Under the pieces are notes generated by a model, which saw only the letters and a list, made by a program, of their open reading frames with translations, did no database searches and was not told the DNA's origin. This document shows positions 4,478-59,982 of a stretch of 59,982 nt of DNA, piece after piece. Made by a program: the position numbers and the translations under genes. Source of the stretch: a virus (taxonomy: Duplodnaviria > Caudoviricetes); the IMG/VR virus record IMGVR_UViG_3300011114_001028, positions 1 through 59,982 of that record; one strand, written 5' to 3'. Positions within the stretch are counted from its first letter, which is position 1; each line of letters begins with the position of its first letter.

Positions 4478-4879
4478 GTGGCGTTAGAAAACATCTCCAG
4501 GTATTTTAAAGATGTGAGTCTTTCTTTTAAGTCTCATCCAATTACCAATGATATTTTAACGCTTACAAATGTAACTTCAATTAATCGGTCATTGAGAAAT
4601 TTGGTTTTAACGTTAAATGGAGAAAGACCTTTTAATTCACTTCTGGGCACTCAACTGAGTGCCTCATTATTTGAAATTCTTGATACTCGAATTACTTCAT
4701 CAATTGAATCTGAAATTAGAAATGTAATCTCAAACTTTGAGCCAAGAATTGAAATCAATACTATTAACGTAACTCCAGATTTTGATCAAGATTTATATGA
4801 TGTATTGGTTGATTATAATGTTATAGGAGCAACAATTCCTTCACAACAATTAAACTTTGTACTCCAGACGGTACGATAG
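4478..4879 (+). CDS. gp25: Baseplate wedge subunit gp25
   Basis: SLRNLVLTLNGERPFN and FEPRIE motifs; precedes gp6; GTG start. Confidence 0.93.
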   Translation: MALENISRYFKDVSLSFKSHPITNDILTLTNVTSINRSLRNLVLTLNGERPFNSLLGTQLSASLFEILDTRITSSIESEIRNVISNFEPRIEINTINVTPDFDQDLYDVLVDYNVIGATIPSQQLNFVLQTVR

Positions 4880-15800: not shown

Positions 15801-18800
15801 ATTGCTACGACTTCTGTTACTGGAATTGGAAATACAACTCTTCTTCCGTCAACGCTATACGCAGTTAAAATTGATGAAAACACAGTAAAATTTGCAGAGA
15901 CTCCAGAAAAAGCATTAAAACTTAGTCCAGAAGTATTCAAATTATCCTCAGTTGGAGTTGGAAATTCTCATCAATTTGCATCAAATTATAAATCAAATTC
16001 AAAAGTAATTGTATCAATTGACAATATAATTCAAAACCCAGTTGTTTCTACAGCAAAAACAACACATATTACTCAAGATGTAGATAATATAAATTCCACA
16101 TCTATAATCAATTTTAATAGTATTGATGGATTTTATACAAAAGATTTGATTAAAATTGAGAATGAATTTTTACTGATTACTGATATTGGAATTGGAGGTA
16201 CAAATAAAGTTTCATGTAGAAGAGAGTGGTTGGGTAGCGTATCCGCAGCACACTCTACTGGCGCTGCTATTACAAAATATTCAGGAAACTATAATATTGT
16301 AGATGATATAATTTATTTCGTTGAGGCTCCCCATGGTGATGCCTCAAACACTTCAAATGCTCAACAATTTTCATCATTCAATGGAAGAGTATTTTTGAGA
16401 AGTGCTGTTGTTGGAACAGCAAACAGTGCATATTTTGAAAACAATATTTTTGATGATATATCATCACAATTTAATGGAATTAGAAATTCATTTACATTAA
16501 AATCTTCTGGATATGATGTAACCGGTATTGTAAGCACAAATTCAGTATCTGCAGGGATACTGTTAGTTAATAATATATTCCAAAAACCCAAATATCCAGC
16601 AACAGGAATTGGTCAAACTTTTACTTATGAAGTTACACAAAGTTCCGGTATTTCAAGTGTAGTTTTTAGTGGTAATCCTGTTGGATTAACAACTAATAAT
16701 ATAACTGGACCAATGAAGTTTGATATTAACAGTGCATCTTTACCTAGAGGTGGAATAATTGTTTCTGTTGGATCAACTCAAGGATTTGGATATCAACCAT
16801 TAGTTTCTGCAGGAGGAACAGTTATTGTTTCTGCGGCAGGAACAATTCAATCAATTTCTATTGGAAATAGTGGATCTGGTTACAGAGCAGGAATTCAAAC
16901 CACAATTACAGTTTCTGTTGCAACTTCAACAGGAAAAATTTCAATTGGAACTGCATCTGCGTATAATGGAAATATTGTTGCAATTGCAATAACAAATCCT
17001 GGAACTGGATATACTTCCACAAATCCCCCAAAAATTACAATTGATGCTCCGTTAAATTATGAAAATATTCCATTAGTATATCATTCATCAAATAGTGGAG
17101 TTGGCACAGAAGCAACTGTAGATATTGTTGTTGGATATGGAAAAAGTGTAATAGAATTTAATTTATCAAATAGTGGATATGGATATTCTGTTGGAAATGT
17201 TTTAACTGTAAATGTTGGTGGATCAACTGGAATACCAACAGACTCTTCAGTTTCATTTAGACCATTTAAACTCACAATAGATGAAGTGTTTTTTGATCAG
17301 TTTAATGCTTGGTATCCAGGACAATTTGTAGTGCTTGATGATTTTGATGGTGAATTTAATGGTTTTAAAAAGATTTTTGCATTAAAGGAAAATGGAGTTT
17401 CTTCAAATTTTCAAGTAACTAGGGGATCACCAATATTTTTGGATCAAAATTTATTAGTTTTTATTAATGATATTTTACAAATTCCAGAAGAATCTTATAT
17501 TTTTAATGGTGGATCATTTATTGAATTTATAGAAGCACCAAAGGTTGGTGACAGTGTTAAAATGTTATTCTTTAAGGGATCCGATGCTGATATCAGAGAA
17601 GTGAATATAATTCCTACAGTTAAAGTTGGAGATAGTTTAAAAATAAAAGATGATCTTCAACAAAGAAGAAATGTTTATACAGAATCTTCTAGAGTTGTAA
17701 CTTTTTTACAAAATATTGATTCAGTATATACCACACAATACAATGGATCTGGAATAACAACAGATACTTCAGTTAAACGAGTTGTAGAATGGTGCAAACA
17801 AAAAAATGATATTATTTTAGATGAAAGAGTTATATCTAAAAGTAGACCAGAATTGCTTGCTAATGTATATCCAACTACAACTATCATTAGATCTGTTGGA
17901 GTTGGGAGCACATCAATTTTTGTGCAAAATACACGACCACTCTTTAATTACATTCCAGAAATTCTCGGAAGTGGTGATCAAAACATTACAATAATTTCAC
18001 AAAATCCAAAATCTGCATGTATTGCAACTTCTATTGTTTCAATAGCAGGGACAATATCTGAAATTATTGTAATAGATGGTGGTCTTGGGTTTAGCACAAC
18101 ACCTTCAATATCAATATCTTCCCCCACATCTGGGGTTACGGCAATAGCAACATGTAGTATAAGTGGAGTTGGCACTATATCACAAATTCAAATTACCACT
18201 GCGGGATCTGGATATACTTTCACCAATCCACCAAAAGTTTTAATAGAATCTGAATCCTTTACACTTGAAACATTGACTGGGGTAAGTTATGAAGGAGATA
18301 GTGGAATAATTACTGGGATAGGTACTACTTCAATTGCAGGAGTTACTACTGGAATAACTTTTGATTTTTACTTACCAACAAATTCTTTATTCAGAGATTC
18401 TTATTATGTTGGAAGTGCTCAAACAATTACTGGAATACAAACTGGATATTATTTTATGGTTTATGATTCTATAATTGGAAATGGAGTAACTTCATTTAAT
18501 GATAATGGGTCTGTTTTGGGAATTGGCACCTCATATTTAAATAATGTATATCAAGCATTTTCAGTAAAAAATATAACATCTAATGCTGTTGGAATTGGAA
18601 GCACTACTGATATTGTAAGAGTTACCGCAAGTGTAAAATCTTACAATGGATTAAGTGGTATTGGAAATAGTCAATATTTTGCAAACTATAGTTGGGGAAG
18701 ATTATATAATTTTAGTAGGTCATCTTCACCAAAACAATTTAATCTCGAAATACTTGACGGTATAAGTGGATTATCTACCGCTCCCCTTGTAATAAGATCT

Positions 18801-20428: not shown

Positions 20429-23400
20429 ATGCCCCAAGAAACTAATTTAAACGTAACTCCATATTATGATGATTTCAATGATGAAAAAAACTTTTATCGA
20501 GTTTTATTTAAACCAGGCAATTCTATACAAGCTAGAGAATTAACAACATTACAATCAATACTCCAAAATCAAATTGAAAAATTTGGAAATCATTTTTTTA
20601 AGGAGGGTGCAAGAGTAATTCCTGGTCAAATATCATTCACCTTAGAATATGATTGTATTCAAGTTGAATCTGAATTTTTGGGAATACCATTAAGTTTGTA
20701 CTTAAATTCTTTGTTGGGAATTAAGATACAGGGGTCTACAAGTGGAGTTACAGCAAAAATTTCTAATATATTAACCCAAAGTGAATCGGATAATGGTAAT
20801 ATTACATTATACTTAGAGTATGAAAAATCTTCAAATGATTTTTCAACAAAATCTTTTTCTGATGGTGAAAATTTAATAACTTTATCTAATATAACATTTG
20901 GTCTATCAAATCTCATATCTTCTGGTGAGCAGTTTGCCAAAGCAATAGATCAAAATGCAAGTGCGGTTGGATCTGCATCTTTTATTTCAGAAGGAGTATA
21001 TTTTTTAAGAGGTACTTTTGTAAAAGTTCCTACTCAAACATTAATTTTAGATCAATATTCAAATTCTCCAACTTATAGGGTTGGATTGTATGTAAAAGAA
21101 GAAATTATAACAGCGGATCAGGATGAATCTTTATATGATAATGCAAGAGGATTTTCAAATTATTCAGCTCCAGGAGCAGATAGGTTAAAAATTAGTGCTG
21201 AATTAATTAAAAAAGAAATTGACGATTTTAACGACGAAAGTTTTGTCGAATTGATGAGAATTCAAAATGGAGCTATTGATAAATTTGTCAATAGAACAGA
21301 ATATAGTATTTTTGCTCAAGAATTAGCTAGAAGAACTTTTGATGAATCTGGAAATTACTATGTTGCACCATTTAATTCAGTAGTAAAGGAATCATTAAAC
21401 AGTAGAGAAGGAAATAATGGGATTTATTATGAAAATCAGTTAACACAATCTGGAAAAACTCCATCTGAAGATTTGATGATATATCAAATCTCCCCAGGAA
21501 AGGCATATATTAGTGGATACGAAGTTAATTTGGATGGATCTACTCTTATTGATGTTGCAAAACCAAGAGATAAAGGATCAGTTTCTGGAGAAGGTATTCA
21601 ATTTGATACCGGACCAAAATTTACAGTAACTAATGTTTATGGTCAACCAAGTGTTGGTGTTGGAACTACTGCATATTTAAGTCTTAGAAGTGATAGAATT
21701 GGTGCATCCAAACTTTCTCCTTCTGGAGATGAAATTGGTGTTGCAAGAGCATATGATTTCAGTTTAAGTAGTACAGATTATCTTGGAATAACAACCACAT
21801 ATTCATTAAGAGTTTTTGATTTACAAACATTTACTCAGATTGGATTAAGTACAAATATATCTCTAACTAAACCAATATTAATTCAAGGTAATAGTAGTGG
21901 AGCAAGAGGATATTTAAAATCTTCAGTATCAAACTCTAACATATTAACATTATATGGAGTAGAGGGGCAATTTATAAAAGATGAAGGTGTAAATATTAGT
22001 GGTATTACAACATTTGGACACACAATAAGAAATATTAGAGATTATAAACTATCTGATATCAATTCAATTTACAGTTACAGAAGTTCTGCTTCAAATAATT
22101 GTGGATTTAATGCCGATTTGGTATTAGATAAGTCAATTATTCCACCAGTAACAATTCAAAATAGTGCTGTATCTTCACCAACAATTCCATCTTTCATAAT
22201 TACTCCAGATTCTAATGGATTTAGCACCGTTACATCCACTGCATGTAATTTTATTGGAGTAGCAACTGTTGGAAATATTGTAAGTTACCCAAGAGTAGGA
22301 TTTAATACAATAACTTATAATAAAATTTCAAATATTTCAAATGATGGAAGACAATTAACACTAGTGAGCATCAGCACAGTTTCTGGAATTTGTGATGGTA
22401 GCATCGTTCAAGGAATTAGTACTGTAACGACATCTGATTTTTCAATACGATCTTCAGCAATTAAAAACATTTCAGATCCATCATATACTGTTAGATTAAC
22501 AAAGGGGAATGTTTCAGAAATTGATGTTGAAAATACAGATATTGCTTTGAAAACACAATATTTAATTTCAAGTTTTAGTAATAATATAATTGTCGCAACT
22601 ACACTAACATCTGGATATACTTATCAACCATATACAAACGATAGATATTGTCTTGCGTATAGTGATGGAACAAGTGAACCTTTATCTAGTGATAAATTTA
22701 TATTTTCAAATGGATTTAAAGATTTATCAATTAAAAATTTAACTGTTGCAAGTGGATCAAATGCAACTTTGATTGTTTCAATCAAAAAAGAAAAACCAAA
22801 AGCAAAAACAAAAAATATTTTAAAGGCAAATACTTTAGTTATTAATAAATCTTCAAATTCAGCTTCTGGTGTTGGTAATTCTAGTTTAAATGATGGTTTA
22901 ACATATAGTGCAATTTATGGTACAAGAATTCAAGATAAAGAAATTTCTTTAAATGTGCCAGATGTAAGAAGAATTTTAGCAATATATGAGTCATCATCTA
23001 CATCAGATCCAGTTTTACCAACAATTACATTTGTATCCGGATCACTAACTGGACCAAATCAAGATGCAACTGATGCTATCATTGGTGAAAAAATAATTGG
23101 AGAAACTAGTGGTGCAGTTGCAATTGTAATTGAAAAAACCACAAATACTCTCGGATTTATATATCGAAATGGAAATTTCTTTATTGCTGGTGAAAATATT
23201 ATATTTACTGATTCTGGAATTTTGGGAGTATGCAACTCAAAGACTGATGGAGATAGAAATATAAATGAAAAATATGCTTTAGATTTTGGACAAAGATTAA
23301 ATTTTTATGATTATTCAAGAATTATAAAACTTGATGATAATTTTAATCCAACTAAAAAAATAAAAATTGTATTTCAAAATTATGTTATTGATGCAAGTGA

Positions 23401-26400
23401 TGTTGGAGACATTGTTACAGTTAACAGTTATCCATCAGAAGAATATAAGTATTCTCAAATTTTTAATGAATCCTCAACTTCAGACATAATTGATATTCGA
23501 CCAAGAGTATCAAACTATAGTGCGACATCAGCAATTTCTTCACCATTTGAATTTGAATCTCGAAATTTTACTGCTTCTGGACAATCTTCAAATTATTATA
23601 TCGCACCAAATGAAACTATAACAGTAAGTTTTAGTTATTATTTACCAAGAATTGATAGATTATTCTTAACAAAGGAAGGAAATTTTCAGTTACAAAAAGG
23701 AGTTTCAGCAGACAATCCTTTACCACCAGGACAAGTTGATGGTGGATTAGAAATTGCAACATTTTATTTGCCAGCATTTCTTTATAAAACTTCTGATGTA
23801 AGATTGAATTATGCAAGTCATAAAAGATATAGAATGCAAGATATTTCTAGATTGGAAACTAGAATTTCCAATTTAGAATACTATACAAATTTATCTCTCC
23901 TTGAAACTTCCACCGAATCACTATCGATTAAAACAAATGGTGTAGACAGATTTAAGTGTGGATTTTTTGTAGATAATTTTAAATCACATGCTTCACATTC
24001 AATTGCAAATGTAGATTTTCGTGCAAGTATTGATAAGCAGCAGGGATATTTAAGACCATTGAATTTTACAACAGCAGTTGATTTAATTGTTGGATCAGAA
24101 TCATTAATTGGAATTGCTGCTACTCCAAATTCTTCTGTGGATTTGGGATTCGTGCAAGATTTGCAAAATTCAAACGTTAAAAAGAATGGTAATATTGTAA
24201 CATTAAGTTATACTTCTACACCGTTTGTTAAAAATGAGTTTGCAACTAGGATTGAAAATGTAACACCATTTCTTGTTGTTTTTTACAGTGGAATTATAGA
24301 ATTAAATCCATCATCAGATACTTGGGTTGATACAACAACTGTTGCTGCAAATCGAGTAAATATTGAAGGTGATTATAAATCTACAATACAACAACTTCAA
24401 GTTGATGAAAGAACTGGTTGGAGTGAAACAGATTGGGGAGCTTGGCAAACCGATTGGGTTGGAACAGTAGTTCAAGATAATGTTAGTCAGTCTATGGTTC
24501 AAGTAAGCACAGAATTTAGTGATACTTTTTCAAGAGCTGGACAATCTGGTTGGTTAACAGATTCTGTTGCTGCAAGAGGAGGACCACCTCCAGATTGGGC
24601 AGCAGGTGATCTTAGAGGACAAAGGGGATTTTGGGAATTTGAAGTAGAGCAAAAAGGTACGGTAACTTCAGATCGTACAACAATTTCAAATGAAAGAACT
24701 ACAACAACTAGTGCAAAACAATCTAGAACTGGTGTTGCTTGGAATGTAAGTGAAAGAGTTGATACGGCAAATCTCGGAGAAAGAGTAGTCAATACCGATA
24801 TTATTCGTTTTATGAGATCTAGAAATGTTGAATTCATTTCTAGGAAATTAAAGCCTAGAACGAGAATGTATGCATTTTTTGATAGGGTAAATGTCACAAG
24901 TTATTGCTTTCCAAAACTTGTAGAAATTCGTATGACAACCGGAACATTTCAGGTTGGAGAAACTGTTAATGGAAGAATATCTTCATCTTCTGGCACAAGA
25001 ATTGGAATAACTCCAGAAATATCATTTAGAGTTGCTACATCAAACCACAAATATGGTCCTTACAATTCTGCAACAGATGTTTATACAATTAATCCGTATG
25101 ATGATACACAAACTCTTTCTTCAACATATTCATCTACTTCTAGTATTTTAAATGTTGATACATCAAGTTTACAGAATATAGTTACTGGTGGATTTTCTGG
25201 TAGAATTGTATCTGGAATGACTTTAAGTGGGCAAACTAGTGGTGCTCAAGCAGTTGTAACTAATGTAAGACTTGTTTCTGATAATATTGGCACATTAATT
25301 GGATCTTTCTTTATCCCAGACGGAAATATAAGTCCAAATCCAAAATTTGAAACAGGGAATAAAACTTTTAGATTGACAACTAGTGATACAGATTCTCAAG
25401 TTGCCAATATTATAACCACTAGTGCTCAAGAAAGTTTCTTTGCATCTGGAGTTCTTCAAACAAAACAAGATACAGTTCTTGGCATAAGAAATGCTAATGT
25501 AAGAAAAGAACCAAAAGTAGATACACCAAGAACTATCAGTAGTACAAATAATGACGGTGGAGGAGTAATAGCAACCTTAGATGTTAACCAAAGAATTAAT
25601 GTTACAGGAGAACAAATAACTTCCTCCGTTTATAGGGATCCTTTAGCACAATCCTTTATTGTAAGTGAACAAAATGGTGTATATGCAACCAAATTAGATT
25701 TATATTTTCAAGCAAAAGATGATACTTTGCCAGTTATTGTGCAATTACGATCTATTGAAAGTGGATTACCCACTACAAAAGTATTACCGTTTTCAGAAGT
25801 TGAAGTGCTTCCATCACAAATTGCAATTTCAACTACCGGACAAGTTGGAACATCGGTAACATTTAAAGCTCCAGTTTATCTTGAAAATACAAAAGAATAT
25901 GCAATTGTATTACTTTCAGATTCTACAAATTACACTGTTTGGATTTCTAGAATGGGAGAAGAAGATGTAACTACTGTAAATCTTCCAGAATCTGCTAAGA
26001 AAATTGTTTCAAATCAACCATATCTTGGATCTCTCTTTAAATCTCAAAATGGAAGCACTTGGGAACCAAGTGGTTATGAAGATTTAAAATTCATACTCTA
26101 TAAAGCTCAATATACAACCACACCGGGCACTGTGACCTTCTACAACCCATCAGAAGGAATTTCTAATGGTACTTTATGCAATTTACCTAAAGACGCTGTG
26201 CAGTCATTCTCTAAGAGAATTACGATTGGTGTATGCACAAATATTAGTAACTATGCTGGTATTATTCCTGGAGTAAGTATTGGAATTACCGATATGAGTG
26301 TAAGTGGTAAATTGATCGGTGTTGGTGGATCAGTATCACAATCTGTCGGAGCTGCACTTTCTACTGTTAGTGCTGGTATTGGGTATACAACTTTTGGTGC

Positions 26401-28114
26401 TACGGGAATTTCTCTAGACACAATTACTGGTGAAGGATATGGATTGACAGCAGATATATATTTTGTCAACAATTCTTTAGATACGACAAGTTCTGGAATT
26501 GTTACAGTTACTAATGGTGGATTTGGATATAGAGTTGGTGATATTGTGGGAATCCCAAGTTCAATTTTATTTGGAAATGGTGCAACTTTAAAAGTACAAA
26601 CTTTGGGATCAGTAAATACTCTATTTTTGGACCAAATTCAAGGAAATTTTGATTCAAGCATTGCGATTGGAAAAAGATTAACCTATCAATCTACAGCAAT
26701 TGCTGGAGTTTCAAGTTTTGTTGGATTGGCAACAGTTTCATCAATTTTAGAAAATACAACATACGATGGACTTCACCTTAAAATTAAGCATAGAAATCAT
26801 GGAATGAATCAAACAAATAATTTGGTAAAAATTAGTGGTGTTTTAAGTGATGTTTTACCAACTACTTTGTCTGCAGATTATTTGAATACATCAACAAATT
26901 CAATTTCTGTTGTTTCTTCTTCTAATTTTTCTACTTTTGAAAATGTTGGTGTTGCTTCAACAAATCCGGGATATTTACTTGTTGACGATGAAATTATTTC
27001 TTACACTGGAGTTTCTGGAAATACTTTAACTGGAATTTCAAGAGGAATTGATAATAGAAAAATATTCACTCATACTGCTACATCAAATGTTTACAAATAT
27101 GAGTTTAATGGTGTTTCACTGAGAAGAATTAATAAAACGCACGATATGGCATCACCATTGGTTTCAGTTTCAAATCCAATTAGCATTGATAATTATCATA
27201 TAAAAATTAATATGGATGATACTAATTATGGAATTGATAGATCTGGAAATTCAAATGGTATTCCAAATCTTTATTTCAATACAACAAAAACTGCTGGTGC
27301 TAGTGGGATTGTAGCAAGTCAAAATTTAATATTTGAAACTATAACACCAAATGTGCAAATATTTACCCCAAAAGGAACTGGAATTGGATCTAGAATGAGG
27401 TCTATTTCTGGTAGAAGTGTGAGTGGAAATGAAGTTGCATTCTCAGATTTGGGATTTGAAGAAATAGAATTAAATAGATCCAACAATCTAACTTCTACAA
27501 GAATTATTGCATCCAGAGTAAATGAAACAAGCAAACTTACAAGTCTTCCAGGAAATAAATCGTTTACTTTGGCAATTGACTTATTTACTTCTGACACAAA
27601 TGTATCTCCAGTAATAGATCTTGAAAGAGTTAATATGATTCTCACAACAAATCGTATTGATAAACCAATAACGAATTTTTCCACAAATAGATCTATTAAA
27701 CAAATTGGGCAAGATCCACATGCAGCAATTTATGTTTCAAATACAATTTCACTTCAAAATCCATCTACTTCTTTGAAAGTTTTGTTTGGAGCATATCGTC
27801 ATTCTTCTGCAGATATTAGAGTCATGTATAAAACTTATCGTGATGATGGATCAGAAAATCAACAACCATATGTGCCATTTCCCGGATACAATAACTTTGA
27901 TGATGCCGGAAATGTTGTAAATTTTGCTCAGAATGATGGAAATCCCGATAAAATAATTCCACCAAGCGATTCTCTTTCTGATTGGAAAGATTATGAATAT
28001 ACTGAAAACCAAATACCAGAGTTTACAAAATTTTCAATTAAGATAATTATGGCTGGTACGAATCAAGCGTATCCTCCACAAATTAGAGATCTTAGAGCAA
28101 TTGCTTTGGCATAA
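20429..28114 (+). CDS. Large virion structural protein (DUF4815/VrlC-like), 2561 aa
   Basis: PYYDDF, YRVLFKPG, QARELTTLQSILQNQ, DPLAQSF and DLRAIALA motifs of the cyanophage protein found after gp8. Confidence 0.85.
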   Translation: MPQETNLNVTPYYDDFNDEKNFYRVLFKPGNSIQARELTTLQSILQNQIEKFGNHFFKEGARVIPGQISFTLEYDCIQVESEFLGIPLSLYLNSLLGIKIQGSTSGVTAKISNILTQSESDNGNITLYLEYEKSSNDFSTKSFSDGENLITLSNITFGLSNLISSGEQFAKAIDQNASAVGSASFISEGVYFLRGTFVKVPTQTLILDQYSNSPTYRVGLYVKEEIITADQDESLYDNARGFSNYSAPGADRLKISAELIKKEIDDFNDESFVELMRIQNGAIDKFVNRTEYSIFAQELARRTFDESGNYYVAPFNSVVKESLNSREGNNGIYYENQLTQSGKTPSEDLMIYQISPGKAYISGYEVNLDGSTLIDVAKPRDKGSVSGEGIQFDTGPKFTVTNVYGQPSVGVGTTAYLSLRSDRIGASKLSPSGDEIGVARAYDFSLSSTDYLGITTTYSLRVFDLQTFTQIGLSTNISLTKPILIQGNSSGARGYLKSSVSNSNILTLYGVEGQFIKDEGVNISGITTFGHTIRNIRDYKLSDINSIYSYRSSASNNCGFNADLVLDKSIIPPVTIQNSAVSSPTIPSFIITPDSNGFSTVTSTACNFIGVATVGNIVSYPRVGFNTITYNKISNISNDGRQLTLVSISTVSGICDGSIVQGISTVTTSDFSIRSSAIKNISDPSYTVRLTKGNVSEIDVENTDIALKTQYLISSFSNNIIVATTLTSGYTYQPYTNDRYCLAYSDGTSEPLSSDKFIFSNGFKDLSIKNLTVASGSNATLIVSIKKEKPKAKTKNILKANTLVINKSSNSASGVGNSSLNDGLTYSAIYGTRIQDKEISLNVPDVRRILAIYESSSTSDPVLPTITFVSGSLTGPNQDATDAIIGEKIIGETSGAVAIVIEKTTNTLGFIYRNGNFFIAGENIIFTDSGILGVCNSKTDGDRNINEKYALDFGQRLNFYDYSRIIKLDDNFNPTKKIKIVFQNYVIDASDVGDIVTVNSYPSEEYKYSQIFNESSTSDIIDIRPRVSNYSATSAISSPFEFESRNFTASGQSSNYYIAPNETITVSFSYYLPRIDRLFLTKEGNFQLQKGVSADNPLPPGQVDGGLEIATFYLPAFLYKTSDVRLNYASHKRYRMQDISRLETRISNLEYYTNLSLLETSTESLSIKTNGVDRFKCGFFVDNFKSHASHSIANVDFRASIDKQQGYLRPLNFTTAVDLIVGSESLIGIAATPNSSVDLGFVQDLQNSNVKKNGNIVTLSYTSTPFVKNEFATRIENVTPFLVVFYSGIIELNPSSDTWVDTTTVAANRVNIEGDYKSTIQQLQVDERTGWSETDWGAWQTDWVGTVVQDNVSQSMVQVSTEFSDTFSRAGQSGWLTDSVAARGGPPPDWAAGDLRGQRGFWEFEVEQKGTVTSDRTTISNERTTTTSAKQSRTGVAWNVSERVDTANLGERVVNTDIIRFMRSRNVEFISRKLKPRTRMYAFFDRVNVTSYCFPKLVEIRMTTGTFQVGETVNGRISSSSGTRIGITPEISFRVATSNHKYGPYNSATDVYTINPYDDTQTLSSTYSSTSSILNVDTSSLQNIVTGGFSGRIVSGMTLSGQTSGAQAVVTNVRLVSDNIGTLIGSFFIPDGNISPNPKFETGNKTFRLTTSDTDSQVANIITTSAQESFFASGVLQTKQDTVLGIRNANVRKEPKVDTPRTISSTNNDGGGVIATLDVNQRINVTGEQITSSVYRDPLAQSFIVSEQNGVYATKLDLYFQAKDDTLPVIVQLRSIESGLPTTKVLPFSEVEVLPSQIAISTTGQVGTSVTFKAPVYLENTKEYAIVLLSDSTNYTVWISRMGEEDVTTVNLPESAKKIVSNQPYLGSLFKSQNGSTWEPSGYEDLKFILYKAQYTTTPGTVTFYNPSEGISNGTLCNLPKDAVQSFSKRITIGVCTNISNYAGIIPGVSIGITDMSVSGKLIGVGGSVSQSVGAALSTVSAGIGYTTFGATGISLDTITGEGYGLTADIYFVNNSLDTTSSGIVTVTNGGFGYRVGDIVGIPSSILFGNGATLKVQTLGSVNTLFLDQIQGNFDSSIAIGKRLTYQSTAIAGVSSFVGLATVSSILENTTYDGLHLKIKHRNHGMNQTNNLVKISGVLSDVLPTTLSADYLNTSTNSISVVSSSNFSTFENVGVASTNPGYLLVDDEIISYTGVSGNTLTGISRGIDNRKIFTHTATSNVYKYEFNGVSLRRINKTHDMASPLVSVSNPISIDNYHIKINMDDTNYGIDRSGNSNGIPNLYFNTTKTAGASGIVASQNLIFETITPNVQIFTPKGTGIGSRMRSISGRSVSGNEVAFSDLGFEEIELNRSNNLTSTRIIASRVNETSKLTSLPGNKSFTLAIDLFTSDTNVSPVIDLERVNMILTTNRIDKPITNFSTNRSIKQIGQDPHAAIYVSNTISLQNPSTSLKVLFGAYRHSSADIRVMYKTYRDDGSENQQPYVPFPGYNNFDDAGNVVNFAQNDGNPDKIIPPSDSLSDWKDYEYTENQIPEFTKFSIKIIMAGTNQAYPPQIRDLRAIALA

Positions 28115-45525: not shown

Positions 45526-46083
45526 ATGGCTCATAAACCAGTAGGATCGGGATTTACAGCAACCTCAAATGGAACTAGTTCTCAAAGTGATACTTTTACA
45601 CAATATACTGATACTTTGAGAATTGTTGCTGTAGGTAAAAATGGACACGTTGCTGTTGGAACAAATCCCACAGCATCTCATGTTGATTATTTTTTAGTTG
45701 ATGCACTCCCAGAAACTTTATCTATAGGAAAACCAAAATCACAAAAAGTTGTTGGAATTACTACTGGAACTACAACGATTTTAGATTTTCCTGAAGGAAC
45801 TGGATCCCCCTTCGATGTGAATGATACAGTTACTTTAACTGTAAGCAATCAACCATATTTTGATTTTTCACATAAAGTTGTTACCTCTGTAAATAATTCT
45901 TCAAATATTTCAGGATTTTATAGCACCAGAATTACCGTAAATCATAACACATCTGGAATTGCCACTGCATACAATTCAAACAATTATGCAGATTTAAAAA
46001 AATCATTAAAGGCTGCATTTATGTCTGATGGTGGTAGTGGATTTGCATATTTTCAACAAATTCAAATTTCAGGAGATCAATGA
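45526..46083 (+). CDS. Hypothetical virion-associated protein
   Basis: 185-aa beta-rich ORF between the gp67-like gene and gp21; TATAAATA at 45497. Confidence 0.75.
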   Translation: MAHKPVGSGFTATSNGTSSQSDTFTQYTDTLRIVAVGKNGHVAVGTNPTASHVDYFLVDALPETLSIGKPKSQKVVGITTGTTTILDFPEGTGSPFDVNDTVTLTVSNQPYFDFSHKVVTSVNNSSNISGFYSTRITVNHNTSGIATAYNSNNYADLKKSLKAAFMSDGGSGFAYFQQIQISGDQ

Positions 46084-46733
46084 TGAAACTTATCAGAGAA
46101 GAAATCGAATCAGTAGAGTTTATCGTTGAAAGTCATAACGGTAAAAGATCACTTTATATTGAAGGAGTTTTTCTTCAGGGAGATATAAGAAATCGTAATG
46201 GTCGTATGTATCCAATGGATGTTTTGCGCCGTGAAGTTTGTAGGTATAGTGAAAATCATATTCAACCTGGAAGAGCACTTGGGGAGTTGGGACATCCAGA
46301 TGGTCCAACTGTAAACCTTGATCGAGTTTCTCATAAAATAATTTCATTAAAGGAAAGTGGATCAAATTTTGTTGGAAAGGCAAAAATTCTTGGCACACCT
46401 ATGGGTAAGATTGCAGAGTCTCTCATTAGTGAAGGTGTGAAACTTGGTGTTTCTTCTCGTGGTGTTGGATCACTTCAACTTACTCGTGAAGGAATTAATG
46501 TTGTGGGTGAAGATTTTATGCTTGCAACTGCTGCTGATATTGTTGCAGATCCTTCTGCTCCAGATGCTTTTGTATCGGGAATTATGGAAGGAAAAGATTG
46601 GGTATGGGACGGAGGTATTCTTCGTGAAAAATATGCTACTAAAACATATAAAAGAATTAATACCCTCGTAACACAAAAAAAACTTGATGAAAATAAATTA
46701 AATCTTTTTAATGATTTCCTCACAAATCTTTAA
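46080..46733 (+). CDS. gp21: Prohead protease
   Basis: NRNGRMYP, ALGELGHP, GVSSRGVGS, DIVADPSAPDA. Confidence 0.97.
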   Translation: MMKLIREEIESVEFIVESHNGKRSLYIEGVFLQGDIRNRNGRMYPMDVLRREVCRYSENHIQPGRALGELGHPDGPTVNLDRVSHKIISLKESGSNFVGKAKILGTPMGKIAESLISEGVKLGVSSRGVGSLQLTREGINVVGEDFMLATAADIVADPSAPDAFVSGIMEGKDWVWDGGILREKYATKTYKRINTLVTQKKLDENKLNLFNDFLTNL

Positions 46734-46779: not shown

Positions 46780-47883
46780 ATGTCCCGTGGTAAAAACTTA
46801 CAAGAAATGGAAACAGGCACCGCTCAATCTCGTACTGCTGTGAATGCGAATGCTAAAGCTGCAGAACCAATGCCACATTTAACAGGAAATATTCCTGATG
46901 GTCAATCTGCAAGTTGGGAAGACTGTGGAGGACCAACTCCAGAAAATTACAAACCAGATGACGATTCTGCAAAAATGTCCCCAGGATCAACATTGAAGCA
47001 AGTAAGAGATGTTGTGACTAGGGGTGCTAAGGCTGCAGAGGCAATGAAAAAAATGAAAGAAGAAAAGGAGGAAAATAAAGAAGAAGATGATGATGAAGAA
47101 GATGAAAAGAAAAAAAATAAAAAGAAAAGCGAAGATGATGATGATGAAGATATGGAAGAAGAGTATGACATCGAAAGTGATGTAAATGCGTTAATTAGTG
47201 GAGAAGATTTATCAGAGGAATTCAAAGAAAAGGCAAAAACCATCTTTGAAGCTGCTCTGAAATCCAAAGTTAACGAAATTAAAGAAGCACTTGAATCTCA
47301 ATACGTTGAAAGACTTAATGAAGAAATTGAAGAAATTAAAGAAGAGTTTCAAGATAGGGTTGATTCTTACTTAGAATATGTTTCTGAAGAATGGATCGAA
47401 GAGAATCAACTTGCAATTGAGCACGGGCTCAAGTCCGAGCTTACTGAATCATTCCTTATGGGAATGAAACAACTTTTTGAAGATCATTATGTATCAATCC
47501 CTGAAGATAAATATGATGTAGTCCATACTATGGTTAATAAACTTGATGAAATGGAAACAAAACTCAACGAACAAATTGAAAGAAATATTTCTCTGAATAA
47601 GAGACTGGCGGAATCAGTTGCTGATGGGATTGTTAGCGAGATATCTGAGGGTCTAACGATCACTCAAAAAGAAAAACTTGCTTCTCTTGCTGAAAATGTT
47701 GAGTTTGAGGGTGAAAACGATTTTCGTGAAAGAGTTGAAACTCTAAAGGAATCTTATTTCCCAAGAGTAGTAAATCAAAACAGAAATTCAGACAATTTAA
47801 ATGAAAGTGTTGAGAGTCAACCAGAATACACTGGTACTATGGCAACTTATTTGAATGCTCTGTCTGCTGTCACTAAGAAATGA
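46780..47883 (+). CDS. gp22: Prohead core/scaffold protein
   Basis: LSEEFKEKAKTIFEAA and VDSYLEYV; acidic coiled coil; TATAAATA at 46736. Confidence 0.93.
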   Translation: MSRGKNLQEMETGTAQSRTAVNANAKAAEPMPHLTGNIPDGQSASWEDCGGPTPENYKPDDDSAKMSPGSTLKQVRDVVTRGAKAAEAMKKMKEEKEENKEEDDDEEDEKKKNKKKSEDDDDEDMEEEYDIESDVNALISGEDLSEEFKEKAKTIFEAALKSKVNEIKEALESQYVERLNEEIEEIKEEFQDRVDSYLEYVSEEWIEENQLAIEHGLKSELTESFLMGMKQLFEDHYVSIPEDKYDVVHTMVNKLDEMETKLNEQIERNISLNKRLAESVADGIVSEISEGLTITQKEKLASLAENVEFEGENDFRERVETLKESYFPRVVNQNRNSDNLNESVESQPEYTGTMATYLNALSAVTKK

Positions 47884-54163: not shown

Positions 54164-55869
54164 TAACTTTTAAAAAACTTCGTTGGAAAAATTTTTTAAG
54201 TACTGGTAATCAATATACTGAAATTAATTTTACTTCAAATTCAACTAATTTAATTGTTGGAACAAATGGTGCTGGAAAAAGTACTGTTTTAGATGCTCTT
54301 ACATTTTCATTATTTGGAAAACCTTTTCGAAAAATTAATAAAGCACAACTTATTAATTCCGTTAATGAAAAAGATTGTGTTGTTGAAGTTTATTTTTTAA
54401 TTGGAAATACTGAATGGAAAGTTGCTCGTGGAATCAAACCAAATATTTTTCAAATTTCTAGAAATGATAAGATTTTGGATCAAACTTCTGCTGTTATAGA
54501 TCAGCAAAAGTGGTTAGAACAAACAGTTCTCAAAATGAATTATAAGTCTTTTACTCAGATTGTAATTTTAGGATCAACTGCTTTTGTTCCTTTTATGCAA
54601 CTTTCTGCCGCTAATCGACGAGAAGTAATTGAGGATCTTTTAGATATTAAAATATTCTCTTCTATGAATATGGTAATTAAAGAAAAGATTCGTCAAATTC
54701 GTGAAGAAATAAAAACTTTAGATTTGAAAAAAGAATCTCTCTTTGATAAGGTTGAGATGCAAAAAAATTTTATTGAAGAGTTGGAAAATCGTGGAAATTC
54801 CAAGATAAATGATAATCAACAAAAGATTGCCAATTTAGATTCTGAAGTTGATATTTATATGAGAGAAAATTCTTCACTTGAGGAGAGTGTTTTTAAATAT
54901 ATAAAAGAACAAGAAGAGGTTACTGGTGCATCAGATAAACTTCGTAAGTTGGGAAATTTAAAAGGTAAAATATCTCAAAAAGTATCTTGTATTAATAAAG
55001 AGCATAAATTCTTTACTGAGAATACGGTATGCCCTACTTGCACTCAAGAGATTGATGAAAAATTTAGACTAGATAAAATAGACGAATCTCAATTAAAACA
55101 AAAAGAATTGCAATTAGGTTATCAAGAACTTGAGCAAACTATTAAGGATGAAGAAGAAAGAGAGCGTCAATTTACCATTCTTTCTAAGGAGATTACAAAA
55201 CTTACGCATGAAGTTTCTCAAAACAATACTAAAATCTCCGGATGTCAAAGACAAATCAGAGATTTTGAATCAGAAATTCAAAAAATTACCAATCAATTTG
55301 AAAATAGAAATACTGAAAATGAAAAACTAGAATCTTTCAGAGAAAGTCTTCAAAAAACCTATGATGAATTGGCGATTAAAAAAGATTTAATTAATCATTA
55401 TGATTTTGCATATGGATTGTTGAAAGATGGTGGTGTTAAGTCTAAAATTATTAAGAAGTATTTACCATTGATGAATCAACAGGTAAATCGTTATTTGCAA
55501 ATGTTGGATTTTTATATTAACTTTACTTTGGATGATGAGTTTAATGAAACAATTCAATCTCCAATTCATGAAGATTTTACTTATGAAAGTTTTAGTGAAG
55601 GTGAGAAAATGAGAATAGATTTAGCACTTCTTTTTACATGGCGTGAAGTTGCAAGATTTAAAAATTCTGTGAATACAAATCTCTTGATTATGGATGAAGT
55701 TTTTGATTCTTCTTTAGATGGATTTGGAACTGATGAATTTCTTAAAATTATTAAATACGTTGTAAAAGATGCTAATATATTTGTAATTTCCCATAAAACT
55801 GGACTTGAAGATAAATTTGAGAGTGTGATAAAATTTTGTAAAGTGAAGGGATTTAGTCGAATTGAATAA
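54160..55869 (+). CDS. gp46: Rad50/SbcC-like ATPase
   Basis: GTNGAGKS, CPTC zinc hook, FSEGE signature, LLIMDE. Confidence 0.97.
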   Translation: MITFKKLRWKNFLSTGNQYTEINFTSNSTNLIVGTNGAGKSTVLDALTFSLFGKPFRKINKAQLINSVNEKDCVVEVYFLIGNTEWKVARGIKPNIFQISRNDKILDQTSAVIDQQKWLEQTVLKMNYKSFTQIVILGSTAFVPFMQLSAANRREVIEDLLDIKIFSSMNMVIKEKIRQIREEIKTLDLKKESLFDKVEMQKNFIEELENRGNSKINDNQQKIANLDSEVDIYMRENSSLEESVFKYIKEQEEVTGASDKLRKLGNLKGKISQKVSCINKEHKFFTENTVCPTCTQEIDEKFRLDKIDESQLKQKELQLGYQELEQTIKDEEERERQFTILSKEITKLTHEVSQNNTKISGCQRQIRDFESEIQKITNQFENRNTENEKLESFRESLQKTYDELAIKKDLINHYDFAYGLLKDGGVKSKIIKKYLPLMNQQVNRYLQMLDFYINFTLDDEFNETIQSPIHEDFTYESFSEGEKMRIDLALLFTWREVARFKNSVNTNLLIMDEVFDSSLDGFGTDEFLKIIKYVVKDANIFVISHKTGLEDKFESVIKFCKVKGFSRIE

Positions 55870-55901
55870 ATATAAATAATAGTGTATAGTGCGTGTCCCT
55901 A

Positions 55902-56582
55902 ATGAAAAATATTTATTATACCTATGCCTGGTTGAGGGAGGATATGACCCCTTATTATGTGGGTAAGGGTATTGGTAATAGGGCATATCGTTCTCATAGA
56001 AGAGGGGATACTTATATGTCTCCTCCACCAAGAGATAGAGTGCTTTTTTTGAAGAAAAATCTAACAGAGTTTAACGCTTATAAACACGAAAACTATATTA
56101 TCACTATTTTGGGGTTAAAAAGTGAAGGTGGTATATTAATCAATATGTCTTATGGTGGGGAAGGAAGTTCAGGTAGAAAAGCAAGTGAATATTGTATTCA
56201 AAGAACAAAAGAAGTTAATATAGGAAAAACTCTTACAGAAGAACACAAGAAAAAAGTTTCACAACAAGTATTACAAAGGAGGTGGTGGAATAATGGTAAA
56301 ATAGATAAGCACACTATTGCATGTCCTGGTGATGGTTGGGTATTGGGAAGATTATTTACCAAAGAGTGTGAAAAGTATAAAACAAAAGAGTTTGCTGAAA
56401 AATCAAGAAAAAATAACTTGGGTAAAGTTGTTAGTGATGAAACCAAGAAAAAGCAAAGTGAAATGAGAAAAGGTAGAAAATGGTGGAATAATGGTATTGA
56501 AACAAAGTTATGTTATGAATGTCCTGCGGATGGGTGGGTCGTTGGGCGACCAGGACACTTGATGAAGTGTCCCACCACTTAA
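55902..56582 (+). mobile_element. Free-standing GIY-YIG-like homing endonuclease
   Basis: YYTYAWLR...PYYVGKG...R...H; two NUMOD3-like segments each followed by WWNNG...CPxDGWVxGR; TATAAATA at 55871. Confidence 0.8.
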
Positions 56583-56609
56583 AACGATTAGTCGTGGGGC
56601 GGGTATAAT
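56553..56609 (+). promoter_or_regulatory. Early promoter with palindromic box
   Basis: GGACACTT-GATG-AAGTGTCC, 31 nt, then TATAAT. Confidence 0.75.
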
Positions 56610-56632
56610 ACTTTCATATCGCACATCCTCAA

Positions 56633-58771
56633 ATGTCCGTCAATATTGAAGTAAAGGGAATGCTTGCTCGTCTTCTGGCTACAGAAGATATTGTTGTTGA
56701 GCATAAAAAAGTAGAAACCGCTTGCTTTAATGTCCATACCAGAGTTCTTACTCTCCCGATGTGGGAGAAGGCTAGCAATAATATCTACGATTTGTTGGTC
56801 GCCCACGAGTGCGGGCATAGTATTCACACTCCCGATGATGACTGGTTTGAGAATACTACAATTCCTCAACAGTTTGTGAATATTGTAGAAGATGCCCGTA
56901 TTGAAAAATTAATGAAACGCAAGTATGAGGGACTTGCAAAGACTTTTTATAATGGATATAAAGAATTAAGTGATCAAGACTTTTTTGAGATTGCTGATGA
57001 AGATTTAGAAACCTTAAATCTTGCTGATAAAACAAACCTTTACTTTAAGATTGGTAATTTTCTTTCTCCTTTAAATTTTAATTCCAAAGAAAAAGAAATT
57101 GTTGAGTGTATTGATTCCTGTGAAACTTTTACAGATGTGATTATTGCCGCAGAGAAACTTTATGAGTATTGTAAGGAAGAACAACAGAAACAACAAAAGG
57201 TTGCTAATCTAGATTCTCACGATTCTCAACAACAAGGTAATTCTTCTTCTGGTGAGCAAACTGGAGAAACGGAAGAAAGTGATAACGATCAACAAGAATC
57301 TTCACAACCAGAAGAATCTTCCGGAAATTCTAGTGGAAATCAAACAATACCAGATCTTTCTTCACAAGAACCCGAAGTTCGCACTGCTGATGCTCTTCGT
57401 GAAAAAATTGAGAGTCTTGTAAGTAGTGATAACCGAGATAATGTTTATGTTGAACTCCCACATCTCAACCTAGAAACTATAATTGCTAAAAATTCAGAGA
57501 TTCATCAATATATTGATGAAAATTTTGAAAAACAAAAAAAATATATTGACTTCAATAATGATACAACACATATTCTTGATTTATATGAAGAGGTAGATAA
57601 GTCATATAAGCAATTTAAGACCTCTGCTCAAAAAGAAGTCAACTATCTTGTAAAAGAATTTGAGTGTCGTAAGGCAGCAGATTCTTATGCCAGAACATCA
57701 ACTGCTCGCACAGGAGTTCTTGATACTGCCCGTCTTCATACCTACAAGTATAATGAAGATTTATTTAAGAAAATAAGTGTGATTCCTGATGGTAAAAATC
57801 ACGGGTTGATTTTTATTCTTGATTGGAGTGGGTCAATGAATGAAGTTATTCAGGACACCTGTAAGCAACTTTTCAATCTAATCTGGTTTTGTAAAAAAGT
57901 CTCAATTCCTTTTGAGGTTTATGCCTTTACAAATGAATGGAGAAGCCCATCAAAGTCTCAAGAAGTTTATTCTCCACATTATGAAAAACGAGAAGGATTG
58001 ATTTATGTTGCTGATGATTTTTCTTTATTGAATCTTCTTACAAGTAAAGTAAATATGAAAACTCTGGAGCATCAGATGCTCAATATTTGGAGACTGACTA
58101 TTGCTCTTCGTAATCCATATGGGTGTGGATGTAGATATGTTGCTCCAACTCGATTATATCTCTCCAGCACTCCACTGAATGAGGCACTGATTGCCCTACA
58201 TCAAATTCTTCCTAATTTTCAGAGAGAAAATAAACTTCAAAAAGTTCAGTGTGTAGTTTTGACTGATGGTGAGGCAAACTGCCTTCCTTATCATATTGAA
58301 GTCAAACGTGGATCTCAACCTTATATTGGTGTTCGTGGTATTTCTCCTGGACAAACTTTTCTTCGTGATCGTAAGATTGGAACTACTTATAAGTTTGGGT
58401 ATGAATATCATAAATTTACCGAAGTTTTAATATCAAATCTCAAGGACAAGTTTCCAACAGTCAATATGATCGGTATTCGTGTGCTTCAGAATCGTGATAC
58501 ATCCAATTTTGTGAGTCTTTATTACAACAAATTATCTCCCCAATACGTTAAAATTTTATCTGATTGGAAGAAGAATCGGAGTCTAAATATTTTAGATTCA
58601 AGTTATGATGCCTACTTTGGACTTTCTGCATCCACTCTCTCACAAGATTCTGAATTTGAAGTTGCCGAAGATGCCACAAAGTCACAGATTAAAAGTGCCT
58701 TTGTAAAAAGTCTCAAGATCAAAAAATTGAATAAAAAAGTTCTGGGACAGTTTATGGAGTTGGTCGTATGA
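56633..58771 (+). CDS. Zincin-like peptidase plus VWA domain protein (CobT-like)
   Basis: HECGH (HExxH) with NIVEDARIE; acidic linker; MIDAS DWSGS and LTDGE. Confidence 0.85.
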   Translation: MSVNIEVKGMLARLLATEDIVVEHKKVETACFNVHTRVLTLPMWEKASNNIYDLLVAHECGHSIHTPDDDWFENTTIPQQFVNIVEDARIEKLMKRKYEGLAKTFYNGYKELSDQDFFEIADEDLETLNLADKTNLYFKIGNFLSPLNFNSKEKEIVECIDSCETFTDVIIAAEKLYEYCKEEQQKQQKVANLDSHDSQQQGNSSSGEQTGETEESDNDQQESSQPEESSGNSSGNQTIPDLSSQEPEVRTADALREKIESLVSSDNRDNVYVELPHLNLETIIAKNSEIHQYIDENFEKQKKYIDFNNDTTHILDLYEEVDKSYKQFKTSAQKEVNYLVKEFECRKAADSYARTSTARTGVLDTARLHTYKYNEDLFKKISVIPDGKNHGLIFILDWSGSMNEVIQDTCKQLFNLIWFCKKVSIPFEVYAFTNEWRSPSKSQEVYSPHYEKREGLIYVADDFSLLNLLTSKVNMKTLEHQMLNIWRLTIALRNPYGCGCRYVAPTRLYLSSTPLNEALIALHQILPNFQRENKLQKVQCVVLTDGEANCLPYHIEVKRGSQPYIGVRGISPGQTFLRDRKIGTTYKFGYEYHKFTEVLISNLKDKFPTVNMIGIRVLQNRDTSNFVSLYYNKLSPQYVKILSDWKKNRSLNILDSSYDAYFGLSASTLSQDSEFEVAEDATKSQIKSAFVKSLKIKKLNKKVLGQFMELVV

Positions 58772-58777
58772 TAAATA
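58770..58777 (+). promoter_or_regulatory. Late promoter
   Basis: GATAAATA 15 nt before ATG 58793. Confidence 0.75.
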
Positions 58778-58792
58778 CCTAAAAAGATTAAA

Positions 58793-59308
58793 ATGAAGAC
58801 TTTTCAAGAATTTGTGTTAGAATGCTATTCTATTCAGGAGACTTCTCTGACTCGTGTGATGAGTAAGTCAAAAAAAGGTGGAATGGCAATTATGTCTGCT
58901 CAACGTGGTGATAAATCTTCATCGGAAAATAAAGCACGTTCAAAACAACTTGAGCGTGATATTAGGGGTGCTGGTCTCCCAGGTCCCACAAAAGTTGCTG
59001 GTAGATACACAGAAAATCCGGGCACTCCAGAAGAAAAAAAAGTAGGAGAAAAATCACACGTTATTACTCCTGGAAAGAAAGGTAAGAGAAAATTTAAGAA
59101 AGCAATAGAAAAGTTAGGTAAAAAATACAATCAAGATTCTGTTTTGATTCAACGCAAACCAGGAGGAAGTTCAACTCTCAAAGGAACTTCTAAAACATCT
59201 TGGCCAGGCAAGGGAAAGAATGTTAGTATAGGGAGCATGAAACCAGGTAGAACTGGTGAGTTTGATACTAAAGTTAAAAACAAAACATTTACAGTTGGAG
59301 ATGATTGA
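58793..59308 (+). CDS. Putative SAM lyase (T3 SAMase-like) with T4-type capsid-targeting sequence
   Basis: N-terminus MKTFQEFVLE; ordered motifs SAQR, N..R, GRYTE, EKS and YNQDSVLI. Confidence 0.7.
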   Translation: MKTFQEFVLECYSIQETSLTRVMSKSKKGGMAIMSAQRGDKSSSENKARSKQLERDIRGAGLPGPTKVAGRYTENPGTPEEKKVGEKSHVITPGKKGKRKFKKAIEKLGKKYNQDSVLIQRKPGGSSTLKGTSKTSWPGKGKNVSIGSMKPGRTGEFDTKVKNKTFTVGDD

Positions 59309-59523
59309 TTATGTCTAAAAACAAAGTGAATGAAACCGAAATCTGGGGAATGCCCTGTGCTGTAGATCACAAAAATAAAAGAGTTTATTTAAAGTGTGAG
59401 AGTGCCATTACTGCGATGGGTATTGGTGCTCTTGTAGAAAAGTATTATCCCGGATATAAAGGACATTTAGTAAGTCTAAATCGTCTGAGTGAAATTAGAG
59501 ACAGTTTGGAAACCGTCCAATAG
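59305..59523 (+). CDS. Hypothetical protein
   Basis: 72 aa, ATGA-coupled to the upstream gene. Confidence 0.65.
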   Translation: MIMSKNKVNETEIWGMPCAVDHKNKRVYLKCESAITAMGIGALVEKYYPGYKGHLVSLNRLSEIRDSLETVQ

Positions 59524-59555
59524 GGTGGTTTTGAGACTCTGATTGCTGTTACAAT
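59499..59555 (+). promoter_or_regulatory. Early promoter with degenerate palindromic box
   Basis: AGACAGTT-TGGA-AACCGTCC, 31 nt, then TGn-TACAAT. Confidence 0.7.
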
Positions 59556-59581
59556 GACTATGTTGAAACAAACCACTCACT

Positions 59582-59982
59582 ATGCTCCGTCTCAAAATGA
59601 CTCCCGATTATATCGTTTCTTCTCTGAGATCACTTTTTGGATCGGAAATTACTGGTGCCGACATTCGTGGTTGGTGTGCCAGTAATGGAAGTGCCTATCA
59701 AACCGTTACAAAAAATCTTGAAAAATATAAGACTTCTCGTGGTAAGTGGAATTTAGAAGTGACACAAGAAAAGGTAAAAGAAATAGAACGTAGTTTTTCT
59801 TCTCCTGCTGCTCTTCCTGCTTTGGAACAAAATCTTATTCCTGATAAAGATGATACTTTCGTCAAGTTTGGTAACTTCAACGATATTAAAAAAATTATTC
59901 AGTCCCGTATTTTTTACCCAACGTTTATTACGGGTCTCTCGGGTAATGGCAAGACGTTCTCTGTGGAGCAAGCTTGTGCTCA
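59582..59982 (+). CDS. cobS: CobS/MoxR-like AAA+ ATPase (runs off the window; not in ORF track)
   Basis: Open frame MLRLKMTPDY...PDKDDTFVKFGNF...FITGLSGNGKTFSVEQACA with Walker A. Confidence 0.9.
   Translation, partial: MLRLKMTPDYIVSSLRSLFGSEITGADIRGWCASNGSAYQTVTKNLEKYKTSRGKWNLEVTQEKVKEIERSFSSPAALPALEQNLIPDKDDTFVKFGNFNDIKKIIQSRIFYPTFITGLSGNGKTFSVEQACA

Follow-up and report, generated by a model that had tools for sequence, protein, structure and literature searches.

A SAM lyase gene with a T4-type capsid-targeting-like N-terminus and a late-promoter motif in a cyanomyovirus contig

Could a phage carry a ready-made enzyme that destroys S-adenosyl-L-methionine (SAM) in its head and deliver it together with its DNA? 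This question was raised by a gene at positions 58793..59308 (+) of the window, by which we mean the whole stretch of DNA analyzed here, a 59,982-base contig of a T4-like cyanomyovirus with a G+C content of 31.3%. The gene encodes the precursor (171 amino acids [aa] plus stop) of an enzyme that, by its family match and fold, is a SAM lyase of the T3 gp0.3/Svi3-3 family. Its product begins with a decapeptide like the capsid targeting sequence (CTS) of T4 internal proteins, and a late-promoter-like motif, GATAAATA, is located upstream of its ATG. We consider it likely that the lyase is made late, loaded into the head by virtue of its fused T4-type CTS, and injected against SAM-dependent defences. 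The original prediction, made from the letters of the DNA, had also read the gene as a packaged SAM lyase; that reading was supported indirectly, and the observation as then claimed was partly confirmed.

Enzyme, N-terminal decapeptide and virion proteins

The open reading frame (ORF) opens at the first start codon following a stop. Pfam model PF23780 (S-AdoMet_lyase) matched residues 33-156 (model positions 2-114 of 133), scoring 54.8 bits where the cut-off is 28 (E 1.2e-14). An AlphaFold2 model built from an alignment of 61 homologues had a mean predicted local distance difference test score (pLDDT) of 87.8 and a predicted template-modeling score (pTM) of 0.78. When this model was compared with the PDB by Foldseek, ranks 1 to 7 were all T3 SAM lyase (8bb1 and 7ock) or Svi3-3 (6zm9 and 6znb), the best being T3 SAM lyase 8bb1_E (E 4e-6; template-modeling score [TM], 0.62/0.71), and the next fold followed at E 0.14. 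Identity to T3 SAM lyase and Svi3-3 in the structural alignments was about 14-19%, and phmmer, run with the single protein against PDB sequences, gave no match. The family profile, aligned to T3 SAM lyase chain 7ock_L (E 1.1e-4), recovered in the same order all five short matches to T3 SAM lyase that had originally been picked out by eye, and the SAM lyase body claimed from them was upheld by the family model, the fold, and the active-site residues.

Across the 61 sequences, R38, N46, E86, and Q114 were invariant and G70, Y72, E74, S88, and D115 were nearly invariant (G70, Y72, and D115 at least 90%). According to PMC7877911, Svi3-3 contacts SAM via G56, Y58, E69, Q104, and E105/S106, with E69 being critical; the counterparts of G56, Y58, E69, Q104, E105, and S106 in the window protein are G70, Y72, E86, Q114, D115, and S116. 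Because the family model, the fold, and the conserved substrate-binding residues agree, the protein was taken as an active SAM lyase, predicted from sequence and model to be catalytically competent. The full-length protein has an isoelectric point (pI) of 10.16 and contains 38 lysine and arginine residues and 17 aspartate and glutamate residues, in keeping with the 171-aa basic protein first described. The predicted mature enzyme comprises residues 17-171 (58841..59305, +; pI 10.4). Two other identities were set aside: the PHROGs label of phrog_2226, "SAM-dependent methyltransferase" (E 4.2e-10), is regarded as a mislabel of the SAM lyase family, and DUF3293 was dropped, its match being below threshold.

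The N-terminus, MKTFQEFVLECYSIQE, was read as the original prediction had given it (MKTFQEFVLE-CYSIQE). Its first ten residues form the CTS-like decapeptide MKTFQEFVLE (58793..58822, +). In the T4 record, ipII and ipIII start MKTYQEFIAEA, in agreement with the T4 sequence given in the original prediction, and ipI starts MKTFKEF. The decapeptide is identical to the start of ipII/ipIII at 7 of 10 positions; position 4 has F where T4 has Y, and position 8 has V where T4 has I. Section 2.6 of PMC9026906 states that no more than the first ten residues of IPIII are needed for packaging and that the chief determinants are residues 4 and 7 for targeting and residues 8 and 10 for processing. All four determinant positions of the decapeptide (F4, F7, V8, and E10) fit the T4 pattern, IPIII having Y4/F7 and IPI F4/F7. 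The cleavage consensus of the T4 prohead protease gp21 is written L/I-x-E, and V at P3 of the first site, V-L-E, is a conservative departure from L/I. The spacer CYSIQE (residues 11-16; 58823..58840, +), directly before the core, ends in a second site of the I-x-E type (I14-Q15-E16). Model confidence is lowest over the N-terminal 20 residues, with a pLDDT of 72 and 62 for the first two ten-residue blocks. The hydrophobic moment of residues 2-12 was unremarkable (1.46, versus 0.89 ± 0.43 in shuffles, 10% of which reached 1.46).

Close homologues retain the tag. An MK.[FY]..[FY] start was present in 106 of 120 of them and the stricter MKT[FY].[EQ]F[ILVM].E in 88; the 14 lacking the tag pattern consisted of nine near variants (MI.., MR.., MN..) and five apparently truncated gene calls. 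Among the 106 tagged homologues, the conserved core (S/T-S-L-S/T-R, just after E) began at residue 16-17 in 38 and at residue 51-138 in 68, the variable stretch between tag and core ranging from 0 to about 120 residues. In 114 of 117 representatives, P3 of the x-x-E preceding the core was L, I, V, or M (the 117 being those in which the core motif was located, out of 150 examined), and the gp21-like site was also present where the core sits about 200 residues into a longer protein. In some relatives (P0125, L022, and L070), a basic N-terminal domain of ~200 aa beginning MQFPEELLDE precedes the lyase within one fused protein, and the old tag persists internally, minus its Met (..CKSFKQFMLECNSIQE..).

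The same start was also seen on unrelated proteins. The DNA pattern MK.[FY]..F occurred 7, 9, 3, 7, and 2 times on the forward strand of five larger contigs from relatives, compared with 1, 0, 2, 0, and 2 times for the reversed control, and at least seven unrelated ORF families with this start were found in relatives' contigs. One of these is a cytidyltransferase of 414-426 aa (phrog_395, E 1e-103) with AATAAATA upstream. The others include ORFs with an MK[TS]F..F start encoding 51 aa (basic; L098:1501-1653), 56 aa (L117:1501-1668), 77 aa (L125:115-345), 105 aa (phrog_1742; L110:1501-1815), 126 aa (L106:647-1024), and 208 aa (L106:1501-2124). The small tagged proteins are mostly basic and belong to no known family, and several have a TAAATA-type motif upstream; judged by sequence, they are candidate internal proteins. 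Among cyanomyoviruses, cytidyltransferases start MKSFSQFLTE in P-SSM2 and MKKFSAFLSE in Syn9. The tag pattern was rare in Syn9, S-PM2, and P-SSM2 (3, 4, and 4 places, respectively); the places looked up were three in Syn9 and P-SSM2. We also observed a stretch A..(K)LGL.GDGHGGW.D after the tag that is common to the cytidyltransferases (L129:44-1318, L131:56-1204, and L112:1501-2778), with a similar stretch following the N-termini of ORF12 (annotated Cas9-like) and ORF14 (kinase) of phage S-CREM2; judged by sequence, this stretch may act as another packaging or linker element common to these proteins. Since the decapeptide is kept despite inserts, is followed by a gp21-like site before the core, and heads unrelated carriers, it can be considered a module separate from the enzyme.

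Homologues were found by tblastn in 13 phage records. ORF6 of S-CREM2 (OR473000.1), 50% identical over residues 1-168, starts MKDFDSFLEE and is annotated "S-adenosyl-L-methionine hydrolase (virion protein)"; it was detected in purified virions by mass spectrometry with 19 unique peptides and 26.3% coverage (PMC10665884, Table 3). The mass-spectrometry virion data are those of this homologue. Its authors suggest that entry of the hydrolase at infection may shield phage DNA from restriction-modification (PMC10665884), and the available text of that paper contains 0 occurrences of the terms targeting, CTS, N-terminal, internal protein, late promoter, and propeptide. We scanned S-CREM2 at every ATG/GTG start (ORFs of at least 50 aa) with the motif.[KRQN].[FYL]..[FY][LIMVF].E. 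Six ORFs matched, versus 0 in the reversed-genome control, and five of the six (ORF6, ORF13, ORF14 [kinase], ORF136, and ORF154 [cytidylyltransferase]) belong to the 52 virion proteins identified by mass spectrometry, the record having 221 annotated features; this proportion is descriptive and biased upward because the motif was written after seeing those N-termini.

Late-promoter motif and gene neighbourhood

The motif GATAAATA (58770..58777, +), which is of the NATAAATA type, ends 16 nucleotides (nt) ahead of the ATG of the lyase gene and shares bases with the TGA stop codon of the gene before it. Section 10 of PMC2984593 describes NATAAATA as the late promoter of cyanomyoviruses. ATAAATA was scarcer in the window than expected (26 found, versus 43.3 ± 5.6), and 15 of the 20 copies on the + strand sit 6-38 nt ahead of ATG ORF starts. 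A 16th lies 22 nt ahead of a GTG ORF at 4478, and the remaining 4 are deep in genes. Sheath, portal, core, and scaffold genes are among those preceded by ATAAATA. The late-promoter sequence of the original prediction was found at the place claimed, and its motif type was enriched before ORF starts. In the 40 nt upstream of the gene at 80 homologous loci, ATAAATA was present in 32 and TAAATA without the leading A in 34 (mostly CTAAATA among the rows printed), i.e., either form in 66, whereas neither was found in 14, of which 3 were cut by contig ends. The motif thus recurs ahead of most of the homologous genes. The motif upstream of the lyase gene is TATAAATA in S-CREM2 and AATAAATA in phage S-N03. 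Contigs from RNA libraries cover parts of the lyase gene and carry no timing, strand, or transcript start.

A scan of 55700-59982 for sigma-70-type promoters yielded 18 sites, versus 13.3 ± 3.5 in shuffles. The gene had been said to lie between two early-promoter genes; this part of the claim was not supported, as no sigma-70-type site was found directly before the genes at 56633 and 59582, in a scan that may misfit cyanophage early promoters.

The lyase gene follows a 712-aa gene (56633..58771, +) that carries the PHROGs label "peptidase" (phrog_459, E 7.3e-255) and for which Pfam gives only a weak CobT-like match. It is followed, 2 nt past its stop, by a 70-aa ORF (59311..59523, +) that is probably on the same transcript and for which no Pfam family and only one PHROG match (E 0.49) were found. 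A cobS-like ATPase gene (59582..59980, +; phrog_249, E 2.7e-25), truncated at the window end, lies further downstream. The order gp46, 712-aa gene, SAM lyase, 70-aa ORF, cobS is kept across the 80 related IMG/VR loci, with the 712-aa gene 5' of the lyase gene in 75 and the 70-aa ORF 3' of it in 70. In a megablast of the region against phage records, only short pieces of adjoining genes matched. In S-CREM2 (L001 2947-5245) and S-N03 (L002 2949-5113), the lyase gene comes after a Dam methylase gene and a small ORF, so that a SAM consumer (Dam is SAM dependent) adjoins a SAM destroyer. The likeness between the 70-aa ORF and the small ORF preceding the S-CREM2 lyase gene (ORF7) amounts to 9 residues (VEKxYPGYK-like).

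A contig from run X1 (depth 14.7) links position 58775 to 59338 through 13 different letters and therefore represents a related phage without the entire lyase ORF at exactly that spot; the gene looks like a cassette, present or absent, directly after the late-promoter motif. Between gp46 and the 712-aa gene lies a 229-aa homing-endonuclease-like ORF (55893-56582; phrog_314 and others), preceded by two overlapping ATAAATA motifs. As it was present in only 6 of the 80 related loci and sometimes positioned elsewhere, this ORF is probably mobile. The window also encodes tail sheath, tail tube, portal, and major capsid proteins, the last with 79% identity to the capsid protein of Synechococcus phage S-B43, as well as nuclease subunits of the gp47/gp46 type and, in the structural region, two giant ORFs of 4009 aa (6801-18830) and 2561 aa (20429-28114).

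Route into the head and competing explanations

According to the route we propose, a gp55-type late transcription apparatus would read the gene from GATAAATA late in infection, this motif being seen in the sequence. Residues 1-10 would then dock the 171-aa precursor on the scaffolding core of the assembling prohead, as in T4 IPIII, and a gp21-type protease would cut after E10 (V-L-E) and/or E16 (I-Q-E), freeing a basic enzyme of 155-161 aa. The window encodes a gp21-type prohead (head maturation) protease (46080..46733, +; phrog_207, E 1.4e-79), by analogy the enzyme expected to cleave off the tag, and a gp22-type head scaffolding protein (46780..47883, +; phrog_237, E 2.3e-108), likewise its expected docking partner. 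The enzyme would stay in the head beside the DNA and exit with it at the next infection, as T4 internal proteins do. In the new cell, it would split SAM to methylthioadenosine and homoserine lactone ahead of any phage gene expression, so that type I/III restriction, bacteriophage exclusion (BREX), and other defences that need SAM would run short of it, as expected from the enzyme family. The ultimate target could be type I/III restriction, BREX, SAM-AMP signaling, or the host SAM synthetase.

Several observations weigh against this route, and some of them bear on the rather improbable alternative of a late-made lyase that is not packaged and acts only inside the producing cell, where it could, for example, halt SAM-dependent methylation or host metabolism, its likeness to the tag being due to chance or to the fold of the subfamily. 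No second tagged ORF was found within the window, and among distant homologues the strict tag was present in only 42 of 149 representatives. Many of these join an M..F..F..E start straight to the SSLSR core, which is readable as one helix, and the enzyme's own N-terminal helix region might include the conserved [LIV]-x-E that precedes the core; yet the tag is retained in homologues although 0 to about 120 unrelated residues intervene before the core, T3 SAM lyase and Svi3-3 lack the N-terminal segment, the Pfam match begins at residue 33, and the model is least confident at precisely the N-terminal 20 residues. In T4, the pattern search that recovered ipI, ipII, and ipIII also found gp61.1 (54 aa; NC_000866 18966-19130, L132:667-831), which starts MKTFKEFIKE and is annotated only as a "hypothetical protein," without mention of the head, so the tag alone is no proof of packaging. 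The pre-set MK.F..F DNA pattern, informative solely where located at ORF starts, hit such starts in S-CREM2 at ORF6 and ORF154 alone, and in total it occurred 3 and 2 times in S-CREM2 and S-N03, no more often than the reversed-pattern control (2 and 3 times). The S-CREM2 virion sample also held scaffold and protease peptides (PMC10665884), so that proteins in it may derive from immature particles or from abundant late products carried over. An enzyme that is not packaged accounts less readily for the unrelated proteins headed by the same tag, or for the five of six motif ORFs of S-CREM2 that are virion proteins.

Two further alternatives concern the job of the enzyme and the time at which it is made. 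That it is packaged and injected for a purpose other than depletion of the SAM pool against restriction or BREX we consider unlikely. It might degrade the SAM-AMP of CorA-type type III CRISPR systems, bind and block the host SAM synthetase in the manner of T3 SAMase, or serve mainly as a basic, DNA-associated internal protein. A SAM-lyase-family enzyme that prefers SAM-AMP over SAM has been described, and SAM-AMP lyases of mobile elements have been proposed as anti-CRISPRs (PMC10600005); the best structural matches, 8bb1 and 7ock, are T3 SAM lyase complexed with host SAM synthetase, and the mature protein is strongly basic (pI 10.4). Conservation of every SAM-binding residue, though, speaks for an enzyme that probably acts on SAM or a SAM adduct and against a role in structure alone, and on the present evidence SAM and SAM-AMP are not separated as substrates. 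Highly improbable in our judgement is middle or early-plus-late expression from overlapping promoters, by which the enzyme would act when newly made early, like T3 gp0.3, and its packaging would be incidental. A weak sigma-70-like site, GGGACA-17-TATGAT (9/12; 58744-58772), does overlap the late motif, which also counts against purely late synthesis, and since PMC2984593 (section 10) considers cyanomyovirus "middle" genes whose early and late promoters overlap, earlier expression is possible. Such sites were no commoner here than in shuffles, however, and the element conserved before homologues is ATAAATA or CTAAATA plus its flank.

Significance and comparison with known systems

Parts of the proposed route are already published, namely, the enzyme family, the packaging route, and the virion association of a cyanophage SAM hydrolase. 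The statement in the original prediction that delivery of a SAM lyase in this way was undescribed does not stand, as a virion-associated SAM hydrolase with proposed delivery has been in print for S-CREM2 since 2023 (PMC10665884). What seems new is the recognition of a T4-type tag and prohead-protease site on a SAM lyase and of the same tag on other cyanophage virion proteins. Our literature search, whose coverage excluded most subscription journals and supplements, found no paper in which a CTS is linked with cyanophages or a SAM lyase, apart from one T4 review that names cyanophages only within a reference. We lean towards the view that the T4 CTS is conserved across cyanomyoviruses (Kyanoviridae), where it would mark a repertoire of head-packaged, injected proteins, proposed to include the SAM lyase, the cytidyltransferase, an APH-like kinase, and several small basic proteins. 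The tag would then extend the T4 head-loading signal to cyanophages and explain the presence of non-structural enzymes in cyanophage virion proteomes. If the route holds, the lyase would be the first cofactor-destroying counter-defence enzyme delivered ready-made by it, and the combination "MK.F..F(hydrophobic).E plus NATAAATA" would allow injected effectors to be found systematically in uncultured phages from marine and fresh waters.

SAM lyases are known for being made first once a phage has entered the cell. Delivery of a ready-made enzyme would close the interval in which unprotected DNA meets SAM-dependent restriction or BREX, and a rough estimate makes this plausible. T4 heads carry 20-200 copies of CTS fusion proteins (PMC9026906, section 2.7), and Svi3-3 turns over 9.5 SAM per second (PMC7877911). 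Together, these figures give roughly 200-2000 SAM per second per infecting particle. At this rate, an assumed picocyanobacterium with a volume of about 0.2-1 fL and about 0.1 mM SAM would have its entire pool consumed in seconds to minutes.

The closest known counterpart is ORF6 of S-CREM2, likewise from a T4-like cyanomyovirus, which is homologous over residues 1-168 and has the same type of N-terminus and a late-type motif upstream. Unlike the window protein, it has 414 aa, about 245 of them in a C-terminal extension, and its gene is preceded by a Dam methylase gene plus a small ORF, whereas the window gene is flanked by the 712-aa "peptidase" gene on one side and cobS on the other. With T3 gp0.3 (8bb1 and 7ock) and Svi3-3 (6zm9 and 6znb), the window protein shares the fold, the motif order, and the substrate-binding residues. 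The T3 SAMase is described as the first protein expressed upon infection (PMC8406200); it has no counterpart to the N-terminal tag or to the helix formed by residues 19-28 of the window protein, which is much more basic, has a late-promoter motif, and is probably delivered ready-made. The cyanomyovirus cytidyltransferases (S-CREM2 ORF154, P-SSM2 PSSM2_194, and Syn9 gp184) have the same MK.F..FL.E start, but they are an unrelated enzyme, so that what is common to these different cargos is the tag and not the protein. The T4 internal proteins IPI, IPII, and IPIII match the decapeptide at positions 4, 7, 8, and 10 and are likewise small basic cargos of a phage whose gp21 and gp22 have homologues here. 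IPI* is an injected anti-restriction protein. In contrast to these T4 proteins, the cargo described here is an enzyme of a different family that hits a cofactor rather than binding a nuclease, and the phage that encodes it is a cyanomyovirus.

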